Positions 5,547-64,000 of a DNA stretch of 64,000 nt are shown piece by piece. The notes under the pieces are model-generated. The model ran no database searches. It was not told the origin of the DNA and saw nothing but the letters and a program-made list of their open reading frames with translations. Position 1 is the stretch's first letter. The number at the start of each line of letters is the position of its first letter. This DNA comes from Terriglobia bacterium (GTDB lineage: Bacteria; Acidobacteriota; Terriglobia; JAIQFV01): assembly GCA_028716525.1 (NCBI GenBank), contig JAQUPQ010000015.1:1237-65236 (forward strand), given 5' to 3'. The position numbers were made by a program, and so were the translations under genes.

Positions 5547-6581
5547 CTAACCTTGGGGTGCGGAATACGTCGGTTCGAGCGAGAGGGCTTCTTCCAAAGC
5601 GCGGATTCCGGTGGCCAGTTGAGCGTCGTCGGGAGGCTGGGTGGTGATGCGCTGCAGCCACAATCCGGGTTTCGTCATGATGGCGAACAACGACCCCGGT
5701 TTCTTGGCGGCATATCGAATGATCTCGTAACTCAAACCCATCACGACCGGCAACAACAAGATTCGGAAGAGAAGTTTGAGGGCAAAGGATTGGAAAGGAA
5801 TAAAACAGTACACCACAATCGAAATCAACATCACAGTCAGCAAAAAACTGGTTCCGCATCGGGGATGCAGAGTGGAAAAACCGCGGGCATTTTCGACCGT
5901 GAGCGGTTTTTGGCTTTCAAAATTGAAAACCACCTTGTGCTCGGCGCCGTGATATTCGTACAGACGATGAAACTCCTTCCACAGACCCAAGCCGCCGATG
6001 TATCCGACGAAAAGCGCCAATCGCACCACACCGTCCACCAGGTTGAATGGAATCCGGCTCTTCGCCCATTGCGTGTGATTCTGAAAATAAGTGGCGACCG
6101 ACAAGGGAAGGAACTTGAACAAGAAAATGAACAACACCGTTGCCACGATGGCATTCACGGCGATAAACCACGGCCCCAACTCGCCGCCCTTCTTGGGAGG
6201 CTCGGCCGTCGATGTCGAAGGCGCCGCTTTCCGGGCCTCCTCCTGGTCGAAAGCCTCCATCAGCTGATCGGCTGAAAATTTGATGGCTTTCATTCCCAAA
6301 ACAAAGGCCTGTCCCAAAATTCCCACGCCGCGCAACACCGGCCACTTGAACAACGGATATTTCTCCGAAACCCGGGGAACCGGCTCTTTGCGCACGGCCA
6401 CTTCCTCCGGCGTCCGATGAACCGCAATGGCAAAGGAGTGCGGCGAGCGCATCATCACCCCTTCCAGGACCGCCTGGCCGCCCACCAACAAATCTTCGGT
6501 CGGTTGCATAACCGAGTCGTTCAGCAGCTGGGTGGTGGCCCCGAGTCCTTGCAGCCAAATTCGAAGTCGGACGTTCATCAA
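5547..6581 (-). CDS. DUF1385-family membrane protein (often encoded upstream of prfA)
   Basis: N-terminal VGGQAVLEGVMMR hallmark of DUF1385, followed by several hydrophobic helices. True start may be the internal Met at about 6509. Confidence 0.6.
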   Translation of the reverse strand: MMNVRLRIWLQGLGATTQLLNDSVMQPTEDLLVGGQAVLEGVMMRSPHSFAIAVHRTPEEVAVRKEPVPRVSEKYPLFKWPVLRGVGILGQAFVLGMKAIKFSADQLMEAFDQEEARKAAPSTSTAEPPKKGGELGPWFIAVNAIVATVLFIFLFKFLPLSVATYFQNHTQWAKSRIPFNLVDGVVRLALFVGYIGGLGLWKEFHRLYEYHGAEHKVVFNFESQKPLTVENARGFSTLHPRCGTSFLLTVMLISIVVYCFIPFQSFALKLLFRILLLPVVMGLSYEIIRYAAKKPGSLFAIMTKPGLWLQRITTQPPDDAQLATGIRALEEALSLEPTYSAPQG

Positions 6582-8801: not shown

Positions 8802-8878
8802 TGGTCGGGGCGATCCGATTTGAACGGACGACCACTCGCACCCCAAGCGAGTGCGCTACCAGGCTGCGCCACGCCCCG
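8802..8878 (-). tRNA. tRNA-Pro (anticodon GGG)
   Basis: Reverse complement folds as a cloverleaf: acceptor CGGGGCG/CGCCCCG, D-arm GCGCAGCCTGGTAGCGC, anticodon stem CTCGC/GCGAG with loop TTGGGGT, T-arm GGTTCAAATCC, 3' CCA encoded. Confidence 0.85.
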
Positions 8879-8905
8879 ACATTCCGGTTTCGTCAACTCC
8901 TGCTT

Positions 8906-8984
<79 letters not shown>

Positions 8985-11003: not shown

Positions 11004-11544
11004 ACCACGCCAAGGTATGCGGTGAAGAAAAATCTGTCAAGCTGAGAAGAAATTCTTTTGTGTACACCCCGAGGGTTTGGAGACATGGTCGGATTGAAAA
11101 TTCCACACTCCAAGCACCCCAATCCAGATAAAATCCAATTCCCAAGAAAGCCAAGAACTCATGCTGTTATCTCGGATTTGGAGATCGGATATTGATATTT
11201 GGAATTTGTCTGGAGTTGGGTCACCGGGATTTGGATTTTTTCTCTACAGCCGGCAAGGTGGACAACTGTGCTATCGACGAACACCCCTCTATTTGTCGAC
11301 ATTTATGGTAGATCGCTTCACCGCCGAGACGCAGAGGCCGCAAAGAAAGCGCGAAGATTTTTTCCAACATTTGTTCATCTTGAAAACTCTCATTCCAGAC
11401 ACCTGATCAACGGCCCCTACGCCGCACACTCGACCCTCACACCTCGCACCTCAAACCGGATGACTCTTCTAAATTTTAAGGTTTGAATTTCGCCTGGAAT
11501 TTGATATTGGAAGTCTCCTGGGAGAACGCGCACCTCAAATCGGT

Positions 11545-24827: not shown

Positions 24828-24860
24828 GCGGCGGAGTTGAAACACTCCGCCGCTTTTTTT
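24828..24860 (+). terminator. Rho-independent terminator after the TonB-dependent receptor gene
   Basis: 10-bp stem GCGGCGGAGT/ACTCCGCCGC, 6-nt loop, then TTTTTTT. Confidence 0.75.
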
Positions 24861-25247
24861 ATGGCTGAAACTCTTCGGTAGTAACTCAAGTGGCCCGTCG
24901 GTCAAGCTGAAGTCGCCGCGGAGCGGCGTAATCGAGTAGCCTGGGGTGGGGGCTGGCCTTAGAGCCTCCACCCCAGGTAAGAGAGCTCTTCATGGAGGGC
25001 AATTGTGCCGCCCTGTCAGGGCTGACGGGGGTGGTCCATAGGGAGAAGAGATGACGACCCTCTTCCTTGGGTCGCGGGCTCCAATAAAGCTGGAGCTCCG
25101 CGGCCAAGTTGGCGCTACGGCAAGAGGATCTCACATCGAGCCCCCCCTTCCCTTCCATTTGCTTCTCGTCCACCTCCCCTTCCGGTATAATTGATCGCAC
25201 CCCAAGGAAGCGGTAGTTTTCGAATTTCAGTTTCGCGGAGATCGGGC

Positions 25248-27912: not shown

Positions 27913-29607
27913 ATGAGACCTGTCCCGATGAAAAAATTTGAGGTTTTTTTTGACAGATTTCTTGCGGACTACTATGCCGCTCACCCCGATGTTGCAACCC
28001 ACTGTGGGTTTCACGATTTCGACTCGCAACTTCCCGATTTCAGTTGCGCCGGAATTTCTCGAGATGTGACACGCCTCCGGAGTGCCCTTTCTCAATTAAA
28101 ACGCCTGAGGCCTTCGCGGCAGCCTGGAAAACCTGACGCGGTTTCTCCGCAGTTCAACCTGGATTTGCAGCTAACCCAACAAACCTTGGAGGCGGCTTTA
28201 TTCAATCAGGAGATCCTACGCCCCTGGGAATGGAATCCGAATTTTTATAACGAACGCCTTTTTCAGGCTATTTTTCTGCTTATTCGACGGGATTTCGCTC
28301 CCCTGGAGCGGCGTGTCCAATCGCTGATTGAGCGGGAGCGTCAAATCCCGGATGTGCTCCGGGCTGCCGAGAAGCAGTTGAAAAATGTTCCCCAAATGGT
28401 GGCCCGCCTGGCCGTGGCGCACTGCGATGGAACCATCAACTTCTTGAAACACTCTTTACCACGCTCCGTGCACGCCCTGAAAAATCCCGAATGGAAGGCC
28501 CGCTTTGAAACAGCCAATGCCGGGGCTGTGGCGGCGTTTCAGCGGTACGGTGGTTTCATTCGTGAAAGGCTTCTTCCCAAGGGTCGAACCTCCTTTGCCT
28601 TGGGAGAAGATCTGTACTGCCGCAAACTCGCCGTGGATGAACTCGTGGAACTGCCTCTGGATTTTCTCCTGGCCCAGGCCGAGGGTTCGCTCGAAGAGCA
28701 TGAAGAAGAAATGAAGCGCGTCGGCGCTTTGATTCATCCGCGCCGGAAACCGGACCAGATTTTGGAAAACATGACCGCCGATCACCCGGGCGCCGGCCGG
28801 TTGATCGCATCGACAACCGGAGTGTTGAACCGGCTGCGGACGTTTCTTCGAACTCACAACATCGTTTCGTTGCCACCCTCGAAGCACAAGCCACACGACA
28901 ACTGTACGGTGGAAGAAAGCCCCGAATGCCTGCGGGAGTTGACTTTTGCTTCTCTCGACATTCCGGGCCCGTTTGAGCGCAAGGCGAATGACTATTATTA
29001 CTATGTCACGCTGCCGGATCCGCGTTGGACCCGGGCACAACAGGAACAACATCTGCGTTTTTTCTCCCGGCATCTCATTTTGACGACCTCCATCCACGAA
29101 GCCTACCCCGGTCACTTGGTGCATTTCCGCTGGGTGAACCGGCATCCTTCCAAAGCGCGCCGCATGTTCGGGGCCATCTCCCATGTGGAAGGCTGGGCTC
29201 ATTACTGCGAACAGATGATGATCGAAGAGGGATTCGGTAACAGCGATCCCCTTCTGCACCTGGCGCAACTTCACGAAGCCCAAATGCGGTTGTGCCGCTT
29301 CATCGCCGGCATCCGGATGCATACCCGGGGAATGACTTTCGAACAAGCCAAGAACCTCTTCATTCGAGGCGCCCACACCCAGCCCCTCAACGCCGAACGC
29401 GAGGCCAAGCGCGGCATCGTCGATCCTACTTACATCGTTTACACCCTCGGCAAAATGCAATTCCTGCGGTTGCGCGAAGATCTCCAAAAAAAGTGGGGAC
29501 CAAAATTCTCGCTCAAGAGGTTTCACAACAACTGCATTCAAAACGGATTTCCTCCGATCCCGCTGCTGCGCGAATTGTTGCTGAATGATCGGCGCGCAGT
29601 GGTGTGA
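27913..29607 (+). CDS. DUF885-family protein (putative metallo-hydrolase)
   Basis: About 560 aa with conserved HEAYPGHLVHF and YYYYVTLPDP-like segments typical of DUF885. Assignment from motif memory only. Confidence 0.5.
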   Translation: MRPVPMKKFEVFFDRFLADYYAAHPDVATHCGFHDFDSQLPDFSCAGISRDVTRLRSALSQLKRLRPSRQPGKPDAVSPQFNLDLQLTQQTLEAALFNQEILRPWEWNPNFYNERLFQAIFLLIRRDFAPLERRVQSLIERERQIPDVLRAAEKQLKNVPQMVARLAVAHCDGTINFLKHSLPRSVHALKNPEWKARFETANAGAVAAFQRYGGFIRERLLPKGRTSFALGEDLYCRKLAVDELVELPLDFLLAQAEGSLEEHEEEMKRVGALIHPRRKPDQILENMTADHPGAGRLIASTTGVLNRLRTFLRTHNIVSLPPSKHKPHDNCTVEESPECLRELTFASLDIPGPFERKANDYYYYVTLPDPRWTRAQQEQHLRFFSRHLILTTSIHEAYPGHLVHFRWVNRHPSKARRMFGAISHVEGWAHYCEQMMIEEGFGNSDPLLHLAQLHEAQMRLCRFIAGIRMHTRGMTFEQAKNLFIRGAHTQPLNAEREAKRGIVDPTYIVYTLGKMQFLRLREDLQKKWGPKFSLKRFHNNCIQNGFPPIPLLRELLLNDRRAVV

Positions 29608-30015
29608 CCAATCTTTGGTTTCCTCCCCGACCATAGATTCGGCCAGTCTCCGCGGACCCTCCGCGTCCTTTGCGCCTCGGCGGTGAAGGACCTAGTTTGT
29701 GACATGAACTGGTTAGCCCCCTCAACATCGCATCAGACAGATTGACAAACCCCAACCGAAAATGGCAGAATCCCTGCCGTATCCTAAAAGAAGAGACATT
29801 CTTAAATCATAAGCTTTCTTAAGATTTATGGCGTGAGGACTTACGCTAGCGCCGCGATCAGCACGCGGGAGGGGAGTTTTTCCTAATAACACCCTCTTGC
29901 CGATATTGGGGGGCCGTTCATCGCGTGATGCACAAGTGTCCAAAAGATTGCTGCAATGACATTCGAAGCCAAGTTGCAAATTTCGTGAATTTCACCAACT
30001 AACACAGGAGATAAC

Positions 30016-33605: not shown

Positions 33606-33699
33606 AGGGACAGACACCGGCGGCTCAACACATTGGAAAGAGTAAAGCCTGAGGTGTCTGTCCCTATCTTCGGGATGCTTCAAGAAAGGAAGCATCCCG
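33606..33699 (+). terminator. Two consecutive strong hairpins downstream of paralog B (terminator-like, no T-run)
   Basis: 13-bp perfect stem AGGGACAGACACC...GGTGTCTGTCCCT with a 34-nt loop, immediately followed by an 11-bp stem CGGGATGCTTC/GAAGCATCCCG. Confidence 0.45.
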
Positions 33700-33812
33700 G
33701 CTACCAGATTACTTTGCCCATTCCCCCAAGATTCAGTAGAATGCCCACTTTACAAATCGACGGTTGACACCGCCGGCGCGGCGCCACCGAACGGAGCACT
33801 CTCTCAAAACTC

Positions 33813-56169: not shown

Positions 56170-57825
56170 ATGTGGCAGCAGATTTATGTTCCGCTGGAAG
56201 GCAATTTGGGACTTTCCTGTGCGGTCGCGGCTATTCCCATCTTCGTGGTGCTTTTTCTGATCGGCCTCCGGCGCAAGCCCGCCTGGATTTCCTCGCTGGC
56301 CGGATTAGCTGCAGCTTTCTTGGTGGCTGTGGCCGTCTACCGCATGCCCGTGGGAAAAACCGTGAGCGCCACTCTCTACGGCGGCGCATTCGGACTGTTT
56401 CCCATCGGCTGGGTGGTTTTCTGGGCGATTCTTCTCTATCGCCTGGCGGTCGAAAGCGGGCAGTTCACCCTCATCAAAGACTCTCTCGGCAGCCTGACGC
56501 CCGATCGTCGGCTGCAAGCGCTGCTGATCGCCTTCGCTTTTGGGGCCTTCATCGAAGGTGCTTCCGGATTCGGAACGCCCGTCGCGGTGGCCGGCGCCAT
56601 GCTCGCCGGACTCGGCTTCTCCCCCTTTTATGCTGCCGGAATTTGCCTTCTGGCCAACACCGCCCCCGTGGCTTTTGGAGCCATCGGAATTCCTATCGTC
56701 ACACTGGCCGGTACCACCGGACTTCCCCTCGACCGCCTGAGCGCCGGCGTGGGACGCATCTGCGCCCCCATTTCACTGTTCATTCCCGCTTATCTCATTT
56801 GGGTTATGGGCGGATTCAAAGCTTTGAAAAAAGTGATCCCTGCCGTGGCGGTTTGCGGGATCGCTTTTGCGGGAATGCAATTCTTCATCTCCAATTTTGT
56901 GGGTGTCTATTTGACCGACATCCTGGCCTCCCTGACCGCCATAGCGGCGCTCACGGCTCTGCTGCGTTTTTGGAAGCCACGTGAAACAGCCGAAGTTGGA
57001 ACCAGCAAAAGAGAGGCGGCTTGGTCCGTCAATGAGGGTGCGGGCCTTAGTCCTGCCATCACACACTCTCCGCGAAGCCTGCTCCGGGCCTGGGGACCTT
57101 ACGGATTTCTGGTGGTCCTCGTCTTGTTGTGGGGCTACGCGCCGGTGCAAGGGTTCTTGAATCGCGTGAATCTATCCTTTGCCTGGCCGGGTTTGCACAA
57201 TTTGATTCAACGCATGCCGCCAGTGGTGGCCCAACCGGCTGCTTACCCCGCCCTCTTCAATTTCAATTGGCTTTCGGCTTCGGGGACGGCGTGTTTGGTC
57301 GCCTGCCTCCTCTCGGTCGTGTGGTTGCGAATGTCGATGAAAACTTTTTTGGGGATTCTGGCGCGGACTGCCCGACAAATGTTTTTCGCGGAGCTTACCA
57401 TTGCAGCAGTGCTTTCGCTGGCCTTCCTGATGAATTACTCCGGCGCCACGGCCACGCTGGGGATTGGATTTGCCGCCACCGGCCGGCTGTTTCCGTTCTT
57501 CAGTGCATTGTTGGGATGGTTGGGCGTGTTTTTGACGGGGAGCGATACTTCGTCAAATGCTTTGTTCGGAAACCTTCAGGTCGTGACTGCCGGCAAGCTC
57601 CACATGAGTCCGCTCCTGATGGCGTCCTCGAATTCTGCCGGAGGGGTGATGGGCAAAATGATCAGCCTGCAAAGCATCGCGGTGGCAGCCGCCGCGACCA
57701 ACCTGAAACCTGAAGAAGAACCGAAACTGTTTCGTTTTACCTTGCGCCACAGCTTGTTTCTTGCTGCGGTCGTCGGACTTGTTGTGACCTTTTATGCCTA
57801 CGTCGCCCCCCGGTTGGCGCCTTAA
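56170..57825 (+). CDS. lldP: L-lactate permease (LctP family)
   Basis: Strong collinear match to LldP/LctP: N-terminus MWQQIY.PL.N...L.A..PI, PDRRLQALLIAFAFGAFIEGASGFGTPVA, NTAPVAFGAIGIPI, WLGVFLTGSDTSSNALF, GKMISLQSIAVA. Confidence 0.9.
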   Translation: MWQQIYVPLEGNLGLSCAVAAIPIFVVLFLIGLRRKPAWISSLAGLAAAFLVAVAVYRMPVGKTVSATLYGGAFGLFPIGWVVFWAILLYRLAVESGQFTLIKDSLGSLTPDRRLQALLIAFAFGAFIEGASGFGTPVAVAGAMLAGLGFSPFYAAGICLLANTAPVAFGAIGIPIVTLAGTTGLPLDRLSAGVGRICAPISLFIPAYLIWVMGGFKALKKVIPAVAVCGIAFAGMQFFISNFVGVYLTDILASLTAIAALTALLRFWKPRETAEVGTSKREAAWSVNEGAGLSPAITHSPRSLLRAWGPYGFLVVLVLLWGYAPVQGFLNRVNLSFAWPGLHNLIQRMPPVVAQPAAYPALFNFNWLSASGTACLVACLLSVVWLRMSMKTFLGILARTARQMFFAELTIAAVLSLAFLMNYSGATATLGIGFAATGRLFPFFSALLGWLGVFLTGSDTSSNALFGNLQVVTAGKLHMSPLLMASSNSAGGVMGKMISLQSIAVAAAATNLKPEEEPKLFRFTLRHSLFLAAVVGLVVTFYAYVAPRLAP

Positions 57826-57865
57826 ACCGGACGTCTCCCATGGTTAGTTGAAAATAGAAGAGGTC

Positions 57866-58323
57866 TCTGTCGCCCCTGAAGGGGCTGCGCGATAAGGTCC
57901 TACAACCTACCCCACCCTTGCTCTCCGCCTACGGCGGACGAGCGGAGGGTGGGGCTACTATCTGACCGGCCCTCCGGGCCTAACCGAATCGACCACCATC
58001 ATTTTCATGCTCCTATTGACGAAGATAAAATATAGAGACAGACAGCAGCTCTTGGCGACGCGCCATCGTTTGGGTAGCCGCGGTGCGGTTTCTGCACCGC
58101 GGGACTCGAGGCGTCACTATATTCTGTCAGCATCTGCAGGCGCGACAAAAGCCCATGAGGAACTGCTCCGAAAACAGATGGAGCTCTGGTAGCCACCCCG
58201 ATGGATCGGGGTGGGGTTTTCCCTAATCCATCTCAAGAGCTTACCCCGATTCATCAGGGTGGGCTCTTTCTGCCTTCCAGATATCTTCAAGCAAAACAAT
58301 CAAGCCCCTTCAGGGGCGACAGA
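57866..58323. repeat. about 460-bp structured non-coding element bounded by perfect 20-bp terminal inverted repeats (element 1)
   Basis: TCTGTCGCCCCTGAAGGGGC at 57866-57885 and its exact reverse complement at 58304-58323. Interior is hairpin-rich (CCGCGGTGC..GCACCGCGG; CCACCCCGATGGATCGGGGTGG followed by TTTT at 58185-58219). No credible ORF. Confidence 0.7.
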
Positions 58324-58337
58324 ACCTTATCGACAAA

Positions 58338-58733
58338 TCAAAAAATCTTTCGGATTTTGGCCACTCCGATCGCGGTTCCCTTGGCGGCATGCGCGGCCGA
58401 TTTTCCAACACCAATCCCCACGTTCTTTCCAAATCCCCCGACCCCTGCACCAAACGCCATCGTTCCCTTAATCGGCTCGCCTTGCACGGTGTCCGACGCC
58501 AGCTTCACGCTGCCGTCCCCCAAATCGGACCCGGCTTTTCCCGCATGCGTGGTGAGCGTTTCTCCGGACTTCTTGAATTCAGTAACGGAAGAATCGGACT
58601 TCTGATGATGATTGGCCTTCTTGCTGCTGGAGACGGCGTATGAATCGTTGTCTGAAGCCGTTGTCGATTGCGCCAACAAAAAGGCAGGACACAAAAGAAG
58701 AAGCAAAAAGATCATGTATCGAGCTGGTCGCAT
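58338..58733 (-). CDS. Small secreted Gly/Ala/Lys-rich protein (unknown function)
   Basis: Signal peptide MRPARYMIFLLLLLCPAFLLAQS, then low-complexity GxGxG-rich C-terminus. Compositionally plausible but unsupported by motifs. Confidence 0.4.
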   Translation of the reverse strand: MRPARYMIFLLLLLCPAFLLAQSTTASDNDSYAVSSSKKANHHQKSDSSVTEFKKSGETLTTHAGKAGSDLGDGSVKLASDTVQGEPIKGTMAFGAGVGGFGKNVGIGVGKSAAHAAKGTAIGVAKIRKIF

Positions 58734-59013
58734 GAAAACCCTCCAATGAAATCCTGGTTTTTGATCATTCTATTGGATGTTGAAAAGTATAAAAGAAGTT
58801 GGCTCGGGAAGAACGGGTGTCGGGTGTCAGGTGTCGGGCCGTCAGGTCCGCCCACTTTTTGGCAGATGCCCGGGATGAGGTGTGAGACACCACCTTGCCC
58901 CCAACCGCGCCTTTGCCGTAAACTTCGTATATCGATTGATTTAATAAAGAGCCGCGGCCCCGGCTTCCCAAGATGGAAGCGAGGGGCCATTTGCATTCGA
59001 AGGATTTGAAACC

Positions 59014-60345
59014 ATGAACCTCAAATCTCGCGTTGTCGCCGCCACCCTCGGGCTCGTGTTCCTTGCCGCTTATGTGGTTTTATCTTGCCGCTCGCGCTCC
59101 ATGGGCGGCGAAAATTCATCCGGTGACTTAAGAATATTTCACGACTATCGCACCGAAAAACCCGGACAGACTTACAAGATTACAGTCGCCGATCTTCCCC
59201 GACCTTATACCACGCACTCCGTAGACAACGGTCCGCGCCTTATCCGGCGTCCCGCCGATGCCTGGCCGCAAGCGCCTGCAGGTTTCAAAGTGGATCAATA
59301 CGCCGCGGGACTCGACAATCCCCGTCTTCTTCGCACCGCGCCCAACGGCGATGTGTTTCTGGCCGAGAGCCGGCCGGGGCGCATCAAAATTTTTCGGGGA
59401 GTCGACAAGAACGGTCAAGCCCAAACGGTCAGCGTTTTTGCGTCCGGATTGGATCTGCCCTTCGGAATCGCTTTTTATCCGCCCGGGCCCAACCCGAAAT
59501 ATGTTTATGTGGGTAACACCGGGTCGGTGGTTCGATTTCCTTATGAAAACGGTGACTTGAAAGCGCGCGGCCCGGCAGAAACTATCGCGGAGATTCCCAG
59601 CGGCGGACACCTTCGCGGCGGTGGACACTGGACCCGCGATCTGGCTTTTTCTCTTGATGGCCAACACCTTTTCATTTCCGTCGGCTCGCACTCCAACGTC
59701 GATGACACCGACGGCAATCCTCGCGAACACAATCGCGCCGACATTCTCGAAGCCAATCCCGACGGAACAGGGCTCCACGTCTACGCCTGGGGAATTCGCA
59801 ACGCCGTCGGCATTGCCGTTCATCCCCGCAGCGGCGAACTGTGGGCTTCAGTGAACGAACGCGACGAACTCGGCGACAATCTTCCCCCCGATTACATCAC
59901 GCACATTCAGGAAGGCGGTTTCTACGGCTGGCCGTGGTTTTACATCGGCGACCACCAGGATCCCCGCCACGCCGGCAAACATCCCGAACTAAGAAACAAC
60001 GTCATCGTGCCGGATGTGCTCCTCCAACCGCATTACGCTTCACTGGAATTAGCTTTTTATGAAGGCAGCGGCGCCTCGGCATTTCCAAAAGAATATTCCG
60101 GCGAAATCTTCGCGGCCGAACACGGGTCTTGGAACCGCGCTCTTCGGACTGGTTATGAAGTCATCCGGGTTCCATTGAAAGACAGACACGCCACGGGCGA
60201 GTATCAGGATTTCCTGACGGGCTTTGTGACACCCCAAGGCGAAGTGTGGGGTCGTCCGGTGGGCGTGGCCGTTGCGCCCGACGGATCGCTCTTGATCAGC
60301 GACGACGGATCGGAATCCATCTGGCGAGTGAGCTATACGAGATAG
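59014..60345 (+). CDS. PQQ-dependent sugar (glucose/sorbosone) dehydrogenase-family beta-propeller protein
   Basis: Signal/TM N-terminus. Conserved SGDH-family blocks (LDNPRLLRTAPNGDVFLAE...GRI, GWPWFYIGDHQDP, GSLLISDDG). Confidence 0.75.
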   Translation: MNLKSRVVAATLGLVFLAAYVVLSCRSRSMGGENSSGDLRIFHDYRTEKPGQTYKITVADLPRPYTTHSVDNGPRLIRRPADAWPQAPAGFKVDQYAAGLDNPRLLRTAPNGDVFLAESRPGRIKIFRGVDKNGQAQTVSVFASGLDLPFGIAFYPPGPNPKYVYVGNTGSVVRFPYENGDLKARGPAETIAEIPSGGHLRGGGHWTRDLAFSLDGQHLFISVGSHSNVDDTDGNPREHNRADILEANPDGTGLHVYAWGIRNAVGIAVHPRSGELWASVNERDELGDNLPPDYITHIQEGGFYGWPWFYIGDHQDPRHAGKHPELRNNVIVPDVLLQPHYASLELAFYEGSGASAFPKEYSGEIFAAEHGSWNRALRTGYEVIRVPLKDRHATGEYQDFLTGFVTPQGEVWGRPVGVAVAPDGSLLISDDGSESIWRVSYTR

Positions 60346-60409
60346 CCTCGGTAGCCATGATGCTTCGCTCCTCAGAGCATTCTGGGAATCGGATTCATTT
60401 CGAACAGAA

Positions 60410-60900
60410 GAACCACTCACCGCAGAGGCGCAGAGGGCGCCGAGAACACTTGGTTATTTTCGGGGCTGCTCCTCACGCGTTGTGGTCGCACCCGGGATCA
60501 TGAAAATGGCAGGATCTGGTAGCCACCCCAATTCATCGGGGAGGCTACCAAAGCGCCACCTGTTTTCAAGGCAGTTCTCCATACCCCGATGGGTCAGGGC
60601 ACCCAAGGGAATGAAAATCACCAGGTCGCTCCATTCGAGGCCCGCAGGGCCGACCAGAATTTAGCCCCGTCCGATGCTCCACGCCTTTTGTGGAGCAAGG
60701 GCGGGGTACGGTGATGGGCAGGGCCGTCCAGCCCGCCTTGGCGGGCGGCAGAACAGCCTGTTCGAGACACTTGACCATCCAGTGAGATAGACAGAAACAG
60801 ATTAGGAACCAGAACCGGCATCCGAATAAATCTGTTCTTCATACAGCCATTGAACCTCTGCGCAACCTCTGCGTTCTCTGCGCCTCCGCGGTGAGTGGTT
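60410..60900. repeat. about 490-bp structured non-coding element bounded by 26-bp terminal inverted repeats (element 2, homologous to element 1)
   Basis: GAACCACTCACCGCAGAGGCGCAGAG at 60410-60435 versus reverse complement of 60875-60900 (1 mismatch). Interior contains the same two motifs as element 1: CTGGTAGCCACCCC..ATCGGGG hairpin (60516-60549) and TACCCCGAT..TCAGGG (60583-60605). Confidence 0.7.
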
Positions 60901-60910
60901 CTCAAAATCT

Positions 60911-62050
60911 CTACACGCGCGACAACCGCCCTTGCCGAGATTCGTACTCCTCACCTTGCCAATACACTCGATTCACCCACAGACTCACGAACCACACGAG
61001 AAATCCAATGGCATCGTGAACTGGCAACATCCACCATCTTTTTCTCACCAATCGATCTCCCAGAACCCAATCCCCCACCACCAGGGCCATAACAGTGCGC
61101 AGGACGAGATATGCCGCAAGAAATCCAACCGTAATGCGGCTTGATGGCGCCATCGCGGCCGCAGCAACAGCCCAAGGCAAGCCTTGCGCGAAGACATAAC
61201 CGAGGTAGCCCGCGAGCTCTGACTGCCGTGTCACCACTCCCCATCGCACCTGATGCCGGAAAAAATCGCGCCAGCTCCCGGAGGAACACTGGGTCTCGAC
61301 AACGCTCCGTGTTACCTCGACTTTGTACCCGCGCTCGGCGATTCGATGGCCCAGCTCACGGTCATCTGCAGCGGAGTCGAGCAGTGCTTCGAAACCTCCA
61401 ATATCCTGAATGGCTTTTCGAGTCACCGCCATGGTGGCGCCAAAAGTAAATTTCACACCCAACACGCGAGCCACAAAAGCGCCCGGCAGAAAATCGGTGC
61501 TCACATGCAACGCTTCGAGCTCCGACCACACATTCCGTCGGGCGATTCCCCGATAGAAACACGTTGCCGCCCCCACTCGAGTGTCACCGAACACCGCCGC
61601 CACGCGGCGAAGATAATCTCGATCAGCGCGAATATCACTGTCACTCACCACCAAGAGGTCATGGTGCGCCTCCCGCGCCAATCGGCACAGTTTCTCGACC
61701 TTGTTGTTCGAACCGCGGGCCTCCGTGCCGATGAAAAGCCGGATGCTCGCCGCCGGAAAATCACGAATCAGTTGATGAACCGTTGGAATCGCGGCATCTT
61801 CGCTCGAATCGACCGCCAGCAGAACTTCATAATCTCCGTAATCCTGTCGGCAGAAGCTGGCGAGGTTTTCATAGAGCTGTGGCTCCGCTCCGTGAAGCGG
61901 CTTGAGAACGCTGACAGAAGGCAAGAAATCATTCCGGCCTTCATCCTTTGTCACGTGAAATTGCCACGCCGAGATGAAGGCGGCCACGTAATAAATTCCT
62001 GCAATCCCAAATCCGAGATCGAAAATTGTCTTGAGGATGCTCCAAAACAC
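60911..62050 (-). CDS. Family-2 glycosyltransferase of the ceramide-glucosyltransferase-like (GT21/HpnI-like) type
   Basis: N-terminal TM helix, VLKPLHG...D motif, DSD (SDSDIR) and later Q/RxxRW-like region. Membrane-embedded C-terminus. Confidence 0.65.
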   Translation of the reverse strand: MFWSILKTIFDLGFGIAGIYYVAAFISAWQFHVTKDEGRNDFLPSVSVLKPLHGAEPQLYENLASFCRQDYGDYEVLLAVDSSEDAAIPTVHQLIRDFPAASIRLFIGTEARGSNNKVEKLCRLAREAHHDLLVVSDSDIRADRDYLRRVAAVFGDTRVGAATCFYRGIARRNVWSELEALHVSTDFLPGAFVARVLGVKFTFGATMAVTRKAIQDIGGFEALLDSAADDRELGHRIAERGYKVEVTRSVVETQCSSGSWRDFFRHQVRWGVVTRQSELAGYLGYVFAQGLPWAVAAAAMAPSSRITVGFLAAYLVLRTVMALVVGDWVLGDRLVRKRWWMLPVHDAIGFLVWFVSLWVNRVYWQGEEYESRQGRLSRV

Positions 62051-62062
62051 AAAGTTTCTCTT

Positions 62063-62437
62063 TCAGCGATTCGTGAGAGCCACCAGCGCCACGCCGAGGG
62101 TGACGAGCACAATGCCCATCCACCGCATCGAGGAAAGCCTTTCTCCCAAGAACACCTTGGCCCCGAGCGCGCCCGCGACGTATCCTAGCGCCGTGGCCGG
62201 AATCACAAAACTGACGTCGTTCCACGAGAGCAGCACCAGCAATGAGAAAAATCCCATGGCCAGAAACACAATCCCCAATCCAAACGATTTCTTCCGAATC
62301 CCCTGCCCCAAAAATCGAAAGATCGACCGCAGCGAGAAGTTTTTCACTTCCTCCATCTGCTTCATGGCGCGCGTGACGAGGAGCTCACCGGCTGTTGTCG
62401 CGAAGACTACGATCAGGAGCCAGATTGTGGTGCGCAT
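62063..62437 (-). CDS. Half-size DMT-superfamily (EamA/SMR-like, 4-TMS) transporter subunit
   Basis: 124 aa, four TM helices, EamA-like pattern. Confidence 0.6.
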   Translation of the reverse strand: MRTTIWLLIVVFATTAGELLVTRAMKQMEEVKNFSLRSIFRFLGQGIRKKSFGLGIVFLAMGFFSLLVLLSWNDVSFVIPATALGYVAGALGAKVFLGERLSSMRWMGIVLVTLGVALVALTNR

Positions 62438-62438
62438 G

Positions 62439-62855
62439 TCAATTCTGCCTTGTTGTTGACGAGGGCGTGCGGGTGATCAGCGCCACACCCACACAGATGC
62501 ACACGACGCCCGTCCAGCGCAGAGCCGTTACCGATTCGCCCAGCCACCAGCGGCTGAAAATCGCCAGCAGGACATAGTTCAGTGCCGACGCCGGCATCAC
62601 AAAACTGAAGTCGGCCCACGAGAGAATCACCATGAAAGAAATCAGAAAAAGAAGCAGGCCGGCAATCCCCAGCCAGATCCAGCCGTTCGTAAAGACTTTT
62701 ATGAAGAGCAGGCCCAGCGCCGCCGGCGTCCACTCGTGGACATCACCAATCTGCCGCATGCCCATGCCCAGCAAGACATTGCCGATCGCCGAGAAAAAAA
62801 TGATCGGAACCAGAATGGTGTAGGTTTTCAACTGCAAGTTTTGTGGCTGAGACAT
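62439..62855 (-). CDS. Half-size DMT-superfamily (EamA/SMR-like, 4-TMS) transporter subunit
   Basis: Four TM helices. The 40 N-terminal codons of the ORF as given are a translation of the upstream tandem repeat, so start trimmed to MSQPQNL. Confidence 0.55.
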   Translation of the reverse strand: MSQPQNLQLKTYTILVPIIFFSAIGNVLLGMGMRQIGDVHEWTPAALGLLFIKVFTNGWIWLGIAGLLLFLISFMVILSWADFSFVMPASALNYVLLAIFSRWWLGESVTALRWTGVVCICVGVALITRTPSSTTRQN

Positions 62856-62874
62856 AAGAAGAAAAGAGGTCCGT

Positions 62875-62971
62875 GGGTGGCGCAGGCACGCGTTCGTGGC
62901 ATGTCTGCGGTGTGTCAGATAGGCGGGTGGCGCAGACATGCGCTCGTGGCATGTCTGCGGGATCTCAGACA
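62875..62971. repeat. Two-copy 50-bp tandem direct repeat immediately upstream of the DMT/glycosyltransferase operon
   Basis: GGGTGGCGCAGGCACGCGTTCGTGGCATGTCTGCGGTGTGTCAGATA (62875-62921) and GGGTGGCGCAGACATGCGCTCGTGGCATGTCTGCGGGATCTCAGACA (62925-62971), about 85% identical, 20-115 bp upstream of the predicted start. Confidence 0.75.
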
Positions 62972-63269
62972 CCTTCCTTTACTTGATCCCTACCTGTCGA
63001 ATCATCCTCAGTCCCCCCGATTCCTCGGGGCGCCACCCAACAGCTATTCTAACCCGAGTCACGCCAACGAGAAATCAAAGCTCGGTAGCGCCGGCAAGTT
63101 CTTGAGCCGGCGAAAAACAACAGCCGCCGCCTTAAAGAACAGGCGGCGCTACCAAAACCGGTCATCATAAGCACCGGCTCGATGTTGAACCTGATCTCTT
63201 GAATAATGTAGACTCTCATCTTGAAGGTGCCCTGCAACAAGGAGGCACAAACCTTCCGGGAGGCCTACC

Positions 63270-63791
63270 ATGAACCGTGCCGCGTTGTTGGCGCTTGTGC
63301 TTTGCCTGATGATTCTGTTGATGGGTTGTCCCTACGAGTCGACCGTTCCGATCGGCGCTCCCGGGCCGGGCTCATTGGATGCGCGCCTGTCGGGTCACTG
63401 GACTTCGACGGATTCAAAAGACGGCAAGGTCACGAAGATTGACTTTGCGCCGTTCAACAAAACCGAATATCACGTCGAAGCCCGAGAGCAGGACCAGCCG
63501 ACTGATGTGGAGCGCTATCGCGTCTACACAGTGAAGATCGGCGAGCGGTTGTTTCTCAACATCAACGAAATCAAAACCGAAGCCAAGCCGGGTCCGTATT
63601 ACCTGGCTGAATACTCCTTTTCTAAATCCGGCGAGCTCTCGATGCGTTTCGTGAGCGACACGGTAGTTCCAAAGTCTCTGCAATCCGATCCCAAGGGTTT
63701 AGTGAATTATTTGGAAAAGCATCCCACCGGCATTTTTGATCCTGACGACCAACCCCTCCTGCTCGAGCGTTCCAAGGAAAAGAAGCGTTAG
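63270..63791 (+). CDS. Lipoprotein of unknown function
   Basis: Lipoprotein signal with lipobox LLMGC (Cys25). About 150-aa mature soluble domain, no known motif. Confidence 0.55.
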   Translation: MNRAALLALVLCLMILLMGCPYESTVPIGAPGPGSLDARLSGHWTSTDSKDGKVTKIDFAPFNKTEYHVEAREQDQPTDVERYRVYTVKIGERLFLNINEIKTEAKPGPYYLAEYSFSKSGELSMRFVSDTVVPKSLQSDPKGLVNYLEKHPTGIFDPDDQPLLLERSKEKKR

Positions 63792-63800
63792 CGCTGGTAG

Positions 63801-63838
63801 CGCAGCCTTCGCCCCGATGAATCGGGGCGAAGGCTGCG
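63801..63838 (+). terminator. Very stable hairpin (18-bp perfect stem) directly after the lipoprotein gene
   Basis: CGCAGCCTTCGCCCCGAT ga ATCGGGGCGAAGGCTGCG. Shares the CCCCGAT..ATCGGGG palindromic core and CTGGTAGC 5' flank with elements 1 and 2. Confidence 0.5.
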
Positions 63839-64000
63839 GCGTTTGTGCACTGGTAGCCCCGGCATTTTTCAGGCCGGCGGATCCCCTCCGCAAATCCCGG
63901 ACTGTCCGGATGAAATAGAATCGACGCAGCGAAAAGCCCCGCCCTGCGGGCGAGCTACCCAAACCGCGATCAATGGGGTAGCACAGCCCAGCCCGTTTTA

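Follow-up and report, generated by a model that had tools for sequence, protein, structure and literature searches.

The locus studied here raises the question of what kind of DNA fills positions 60410 to 60900 of the window, by which we mean the whole 64-kb stretch that was analyzed. The initial annotation described this segment as the second of two related, noncoding elements bounded by terminal inverted repeats (TIRs) and saw in the pair a lineage-specific family of mobile or structural RNA elements. We keep the name copy 2 for it and copy 1 for its partner cluster (57866-58323, plus strand, delimited by its inverted repeat and by homology). In our judgment, both copies are probably BIME-like mosaics of repetitive extragenic palindromes (REPs) between convergent genes, and the evidence for this reading, together with that for its rivals, is set out below.

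Two intergenic regions with different inverted termini

Copy 2 lies in the intergenic region 60346-60910, as delimited by the ORF map, Pfam, and gene calls, and is flanked in convergent orientation by a PQQ/sorbosone dehydrogenase gene (59014-60345, plus strand) and a family-2 glycosyltransferase gene (60911-62050, minus strand). No coding potential was found in copy 2, where all six frames are interrupted; a 95-aa ORF at 60618-60905 has no protein homologue, and neither this ORF nor one of 61 aa has a Pfam match. Copy 1 is also placed between convergent reading frames, namely an L-lactate permease gene (56170-57825, plus strand) and a 131-aa ORF (58338-58733, minus strand). The 131-aa ORF, which lies between both clusters, has a hydrophobic N terminus and no Pfam match and is called as a gene in a Logan contig.

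The 26-nt inverted termini that had been described for copy 2 are present in the sequence (60410-60435 and 60875-60900, with one mismatch), and the repeat finder extends them to 60409-60444 and 60867-60902, i.e. to 36 nt at 89% identity, 422 nt apart. The right terminus is built of CTCTGCG, as had been reported, with heptads at 60856, 60867, and 60876 and a CTCCGCG at 60884. Also borne out is the statement that the termini of the two copies differ: the boundary of copy 1 is a perfect 21-nt inverted repeat (57866-57886 and 58303-58323), whose two arms each form a hairpin of their own (hairpin A).

The interior motifs of copy 2 were found as described. The first, CTGGTAGCC-CCCCnAT..ATCGGGG, is present, and its CTGGTAGCCACCCC portion occurs in both copies (60516-60529 and 58186-58199). 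The second palindrome, ACCCCGAT..TCAGGG, is present as well, with ACCCCGATnnnTCAGGG in both copies (60583-60599 and 58243-58259). From the first motif to the second, the distance is 67 nt in copy 2, against 57 nt in copy 1.

A GTAG head and a palindrome in the shared motif

REPs are defined (PMC8266576, PMC3733652) as palindromes of 20 to 50 nt with GTAG before them, which occur in REP/iREP pairs and clusters and favor the space between convergent or unidirectional genes. The motif shared by the two copies is a GTAG-tagged REP, in which the head (T)GGTAGC is directly followed by a GC-rich palindrome. The palindrome varies in sequence from unit to unit, and the head often has CT before it. In copy 2, the REP is symmetric (60518-60549) and reads GGTAGCC-ACCCCAAT-TC-ATCGGGGA-GGCTACC, so that the head is present on both strands; it was detected as an inverted repeat with a fold of -23.2 kcal/mol, and the same motif was also found in other genomes. 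Copy 2 also holds a degenerate REP-like palindrome, CCCTGACCCATCGGGGT (60583-60606, minus strand), which was recovered by motif search and folding and has GGGTGCC before it on the minus strand; what is a C.A mismatch on the plus strand is a G.T wobble on the head strand. A further GGTAGCC, with a weak hairpin only, stands 4 nt after the stop codon of the dehydrogenase gene (60343-60356).

Copy 1 holds such units as well. R1, found by the hairpin and head searches (58073-58102, plus strand), reads GGTAGCC-GCGGTGC-GGTTTCT-GCACCGCGG and sits within a stretch of about 140 nt that is absent from copy 2. R2 (58188-58214, plus strand) reads GGTAGCC-ACCCCGATGGATCGGGGTGG and forms, with R3 (58243-58267, minus strand, degenerate head AGAGCC), a REPIN-like doublet at 58188-58267, in which a 20-nt inverted repeat at 90% identity folds at -46 kcal/mol; the two heads point outward, and the spacer is 30 nt. 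The window-identical Logan contig L001 starts at 58082, inside the loop of the R1 palindrome (58078-58102), where the assembly broke at the hairpin.

The same head precedes other palindromes at six or more further intergenic sites in the window. GGTAG(C) heads were located at 58073, 58188, 60518 (plus), 60549 (minus), 33705 (minus), 63084, 63153 (minus), 63796, 63852, 63959 (minus), and 57958 (minus), and we count about a dozen REP units in the 64 kb. The hairpin and head searches identified a solitary REP with a different palindrome, GGTAGC-CGGGATGCTTCC..GGAAGCATCCCG (33671-33705, minus strand), whose CGGGAT sub-type was also found in a related MAG; a head-outward dimer at 63084-63153 that consists of GGTAGC-GCCGGC.. 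(63084-63112, plus strand) and GGTAGC-GCCGCCTG.. (63125-63153, minus strand); and a cluster at 63796-63959 with units at 63796-63838 (plus), 63852-63880 (plus), and 63936-63959 (minus), which runs past the end of the window. The unit at 63796-63838 reads GGTAGC-GCAGCCTTCGCCCCGAT.. and has an 18-bp perfect stem with a nested CCCCGAT core, and it looks as if a CCCCGAT palindrome had come to be nested inside another REP. The outer stem of 63796-63848 (GCAGCCTTC/GAAGGCTGC) and its tail GCGTTTGTGC are found again some 180 nt further downstream, with another hairpin inside (63977-64000, continuing in L001 at 5896-5946).

Measured against the definition given above, the GTAG head stands directly 5' of the palindrome, the palindromes are GC-rich with stems of 7 to 18 bp and short loops of 2 to 8 nt, and both clusters are extragenic, between convergent genes. 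Pairs and clusters are represented by the R2/R3 doublet, the 63084/63153 dimer, the 63796-63959 cluster, and the mixed orientations within both copies, and regular tandem reiteration of the kind seen in E. coli BIME-2 was found in none of the window clusters.

The association between head and hairpin was quantified in several ways. A GGTAG or GTAG head is carried by 6 or 7 of the 12 strongest intergenic hairpins of the window. When all 1024 5-mers were ranked by the fraction of their occurrences that is followed by a stem (at least 7 bp, starting within 4 nt of the 5-mer), GGTAG came first with 8 of 51, and dinucleotide shuffles gave 0.63 ± 0.88 such sites, with none of 200 shuffles reaching the 8 observed. 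Two adjacent tRNA genes (8805-8982, minus strand) mimic this pattern, since their D-loop/anticodon arms read cctGGTAGcgc/agc plus a hairpin, and 2 of the 8 strict GGTAG matches are therefore tRNA. By our own ORF calls, the intergenic DNA (about 8 kb) has 14 GGTAGC sites and the coding DNA (about 56 kb) has 8, a density about 12 times higher between genes, and nearly all of the intergenic sites have a hairpin after them. The palindrome ACCCCGATnnnTCRGGG (at 58195, 58243, 60525, 60583, 63014, and 63811) gave 11 strand-matches against 1.75 expected, a number that 0 of 100 shuffles reached. All six palindromes of the CCCCGAT..ATC(G/A)GGG type fall within the last 6.2 kb (57800-64000), in four neighboring intergenic regions, which suggests a local spread of that REP sub-type.

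The initial annotation had itself named the finding that would make its pairing of the two loci coincidental, namely that the shared motifs are REP-like sequences present in most intergenic regions. This is to a large extent what we observed: of the 32 intergenic regions that exceed 80 nt, 5 to 7 hold units made of a GTAG head and a palindrome.

The termini of copy 2 are an inverted pair of a dispersed repeat

The two ends of copy 2 proved to be related to sequences elsewhere in the window. They belong to a dispersed repeat of 45 to 60 nt, here called SRS, in which GTGA comes after three or four degenerate CTYYGCG heptads; SRS has neither a hairpin nor a GTAG head. Four SRS copies in the window align without gaps over about 40 nt. 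Two of them are the left terminus (60409-60444, minus strand, with degenerate heptads and then GTGA) and the right terminus (60856-60902, plus strand, with heptads and then GTGAGTGGTTC), both supported by the inverted repeat, pattern matches, and the alignment. The other two, identified by homology, pattern matches, and alignment, are solitary; one lies 40 nt downstream of the gene at 27913-29607 (29648-29692, plus strand) and the other in a divergent intergenic region (11294-11359, minus strand). Because its termini are SRS members, the "TIR" of copy 2 is an inverted pair of SRS. No SRS was seen in 15 kb of a related MAG. Since the SRS termini, like hairpins A and C described below, have no GTAG head, each cluster is, strictly speaking, REP only in part.

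Like MITEs, the two regions are small, noncoding, and intergenic and have real inverted termini about 420 nt apart (21 nt without a mismatch in copy 1, 36 nt at 89% in copy 2), and the terminus of copy 2 belongs to a multicopy family. Each region might be a MITE, of two families with different TIRs that were moved by a DDE-type transposase and in which the REP hairpins are merely carried along; that the same REP sits in a TIR-bounded element of about 150 nt, present in some 25 copies in the FWPU01/FWWM01 metagenomes, speaks for it as well. We regard this explanation as unlikely. Unlike MITEs, the regions have no target-site duplication, as no direct repeat of 3 to 9 nt was found at any boundary within ±3 nt; there is no second full-length copy of either unit in the 64 kb; and termini also occur alone, with two of the four SRS copies solitary and without a partner nearby. 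The homology between the two regions also counts against MITEs, as shown next.

The two copies share a composite block in inverted orientation

The proposal that the two copies are homologous was partly upheld. About 210 nt align at E=2e-10, beyond the short motif, so the regions are related; they are not, however, two copies of one TIR-bounded element. The alignment on the same strand, the arrangement that the initial annotation had assumed, is poor, and only the palindromic REP itself aligns (45 nt, 78%, E=6e-4). The significant matches are on the opposite strand: 57866-58008 of copy 1 pairs with 60752-60611 of copy 2 (148 nt, 67%, E=2e-10), and 58155-58214 of copy 1 pairs with 60582-60523 of copy 2 (60 nt, 82%, E=2e-10). 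Both copies thus have in common a composite block, A-B-C-D...E, of about 250 to 350 nt, in inverted orientation. Copy 1 carries about 140 extra nucleotides between its two homologous blocks, the order of the small palindromes differs between the copies, and the homology leaves out both pairs of termini.

In copy 2, block A-D (60611-60752, minus strand) contains hairpins A, B, and C, and block E occupies 60523-60582 (minus strand). Hairpin A, TCTGCC-GCCCGCCAAGGCGGGC (60727-60752, minus strand), is, by alignment, homologous to the left-hand inverted repeat of copy 1 (57866-57891), and complementary changes are seen on both of its arms when the copies are compared. Module B of copy 2 (60661-60710, plus strand, from alignment and folding) is a long imperfect palindrome with the degenerate head TTAGCC, and its counterpart in copy 1 (57907-57960, minus strand, from sequence and folding) has a palindrome of about 20 bp behind a GTAGCC head. 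In the fold comparison, module B is more stable on the strand that carries the head (-34.2 versus -28.3 kcal/mol for copy 2), and one compensatory pair, A-T to G-C, distinguishes the two copies. Hairpin C, GGCCCGCAGGGCC (60639-60651), is kept in copy 1 at 57968-57980 according to the alignment. Beyond hairpin A, 148 nt of copy 2, including the right terminus, have no counterpart in copy 1.

Since what is the left inverted repeat in copy 1 is an internal hairpin in copy 2 (60727-60752), the TIR-bounded units are not coextensive. For the MITE explanation, this means that the homology is internal and inverted and ignores the termini, and that the inverted repeat of copy 1 is a duplicated hairpin. 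The shared block is inverted as a composite, and we therefore favor a history in which the clusters owe part of their origin to a composite module that was duplicated or recombined, as in BIMEs. Copy 2 is made up of one symmetric REP, one degenerate REP, module B, and the small hairpins A and C, bracketed by the inverted SRS pair.

The inverted homologous blocks bracket a two-gene segment (58338-60345) and could also be read as the arms of a transposon-like composite that carried both genes along; the dehydrogenase does have different neighbors in the two relatives examined. This loss of synteny means little because the relatives are too distant (73-76% protein identity). No transposase, no flanking direct repeats, and no compositional break were found, and the arms are only 67-82% identical, so that we give this explanation very little credence.

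Distribution of the REP and of the block in other genomes

MAGs with the labels Acidobacteriota, Terriglobia, and Armatimonadota contain the exact motif GGTAGCCnCCCCnATnnATnGGGG, and so do 36 metagenome loci. Given this occurrence across genomes and phyla, the motif cannot be called lineage-specific, and that part of the original description does not hold. The motif had no match in viral contigs, and copy 1 had none among plasmids. Many of the metagenome matches lie at contig ends, as expected of repeats.

The MAG CAZIDA01, which holds the closest long-contig homologue of the neighboring dehydrogenase (its PQQ dehydrogenase is 73% identical), has 13 GGTAGC sites in 15 kb, mostly with a strong hairpin after them, and its hairpins are of the window sub-types CCCCGAT, CGGGAT, and CCCGGC. 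REPs with a GTAG tag seem to be common among uncultured members of the Acidobacteriota (Terriglobia), and fairly distant genomes have REP sub-types in common. In the related MAG (L044, 4040-4045), the stop codon of the dehydrogenase orthologue falls inside GGTAGC.

Apart from the REP, after which L006 and L025 have a T-run, no part of copy 1 or copy 2 was found in any fetched locus. Next to the orthologous dehydrogenases on long contigs (73-76% identical), the A-E block is absent and the neighbors are unrelated.

The FWPU01/FWWM01 metagenome contigs (L007-L042) contain about 25 copies of the TIR-bounded element of about 150 nt with the same REP. Its TIR is tagtgttccgtcaaggtaggtttgacg, and the REP is paired with another hairpin, GCAGGCGTAAAGCCTGC, closed by GGCTAC; the number of ATCCCGATGT units is variable, and many copies are at contig ends.

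Folding of the regions and a possible structured RNA

The shared block might instead be a structured noncoding RNA, either an sRNA gene or a 3'-UTR element, whose REP-like look is secondary. Both regions are strongly self-complementary, and the folds predicted for them are very stable (z about -9); pairing in hairpins A and B is preserved by complementary changes, the G.T wobbles are on the head strand, and REP R2 is followed by a T-run with a terminator-like score, an arrangement that recurs in L006 and L025. The reverse strands, however, fold almost as well (z of -7.9 and -8.5), and, relative to the flanking genes, the block points in opposite directions at the two loci, with about 140 extra nucleotides in the middle of copy 1 and a different order of the small palindromes. 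No Rfam family was identified in 57700-61100 even at E<=10: matches in copy 1 scored at most 17.5 bits, none fell inside copy 2, and Acido-Lenti-1 stayed below threshold with 14.7 against a gathering score of 37. With Rfam 15 in gathering mode, the whole window gave only two tRNAs, which lie elsewhere. Promoter-like sites were not above shuffle expectation, only the REP itself was recovered in the fetched loci, and the orthologous dehydrogenase loci are without the block. We hold an RNA of this kind to be quite improbable, slightly more so than MITEs.

A mobile origin is plausible, and nothing in the data favors a dedicated structured RNA gene, given the nil result with Rfam, the similar folding of both strands, and the rearranged modules. 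What we are probably looking at is fairly ordinary DNA of the REP/BIME type and not a new mobile or RNA element.

Relation to known repeat families

The units resemble the published GTAG-tagged REPs and BIMEs (PMC2817692; PMC3733652; Corneloup 2021, PMC8266576) in having a GT(A/G)G head, a palindrome of 20 to 50 nt, an extragenic location, and convergent pairs. As in BIMEs, inverted pairs are found within larger mosaics with variable linkers, and several sub-types exist per genome. The head GGTAGC and the stems of the window units are very much like the published REPs of S. maltophilia (Smal2, GGTAGCGCCGGGCCATGCCCGGCG) and P. mendocina (Pmen, GTAGCCCGGATGCAATCCGGG), listed in Table 1 of Nunvar 2010 (PMC2817692); the E. 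coli REPs that flank rayT read cGGTAGGCCGGATAAGG.. The window units differ from GTAG REPs in the unusual diversity of their palindromes, given the number of units seen, and in the presence of untagged hairpins and an unrelated heptad repeat in the clusters. Classical REP families usually comprise hundreds of near-identical copies, and the window palindromes are far more varied. REPs typically number more than 100 per genome, a figure with which the dozen or so units in the 64 kb and the 13 GGTAGC sites in 15 kb of CAZIDA01 would be compatible without proving it.

The R2/R3 doublet is similar to REPINs (Bertels and Rainey 2011, PMC3116915), in which two inverted REPs fold into one long hairpin, but there is one such doublet only, and the regions of 460 to 490 nt are far larger than a REPIN. 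For SRS and the inverted repeat of copy 1, the TIRYT-associated TIR families of Acidobacteria described by Di Nocera 2013 (PMC3733652) offer a lead and only that: these families are moderately repeated, non-GTAG, and occur singly, as dimers, or in clusters. The GGGGWSAS motif given in that account was not matched exactly, copy 1 having GGGGCGAC instead.

In this 2013 survey, GTAG REPs are reported for Proteobacteria, Cyanobacteria, Chloroflexi, and the PVC group; Acidobacteria are not listed for them and appear only with RAYT relatives flanked by unrelated TIRs. The host phylum of the window thus falls outside that catalogue. A 2025 tool paper counted palindromic elements in three Acidobacteriota genomes, without this detail.

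Proposed mechanism of spread

By analogy with described systems (PMC2817692, PMC3733652, PMC8266576), the REP units may have spread as folded single-stranded DNA hairpins, with the GTAG head recognized by a HUH tyrosine transposase of the RAYT/TnpA-REP type. According to PMC8266576, the RAYT would be expected to contact the GTAG head and to cut at a nearby CT, and several heads in the window do have CT just before them. The clusters would then grow by local duplication.

A scan for the H-x-H...Y-x3-NP motif found no RAYT gene in the window or in 44 loci, a search that covered about 70 kb of this genome (window, L001, and L047), and tblastn with E. coli RayT against the window and the fetched loci gave a best E of 0.56. 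A weak match in L010 in the RAYT search is a protein of the GxxExxY type and not a RAYT.

It is conceivable, though we would not expect it, that the composite A-B-C-D...E, from an untagged hairpin to a GTAG-tagged REP, could copy as one block (a "macro-REPIN" or BIME module), here inverted around the two-gene segment; more broadly, and with the same reserve, one head with varied palindromes across Acidobacteriota and MAGs labelled as other phyla could mean that the RAYT reads the head plus any hairpin.

Reading the seeming pair of lineage-specific TIR elements as REP/BIME-type repeat DNA prevents a false lead. Because REP clusters break short-read assemblies and yield spurious ORFs, recognizing them helps the annotation of MAGs. 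Judging from the REP literature, hairpins that are transcribed in the flanking 3' UTRs would terminate transcription or would stabilize and protect the mRNA. Elsewhere in the window, a textbook terminator with a hairpin and a T-run is found at 24828-24853, and about 90 nt past it (24940-24977), GAGTAG stands before a 14-bp hairpin and may be the variant head of a REP.
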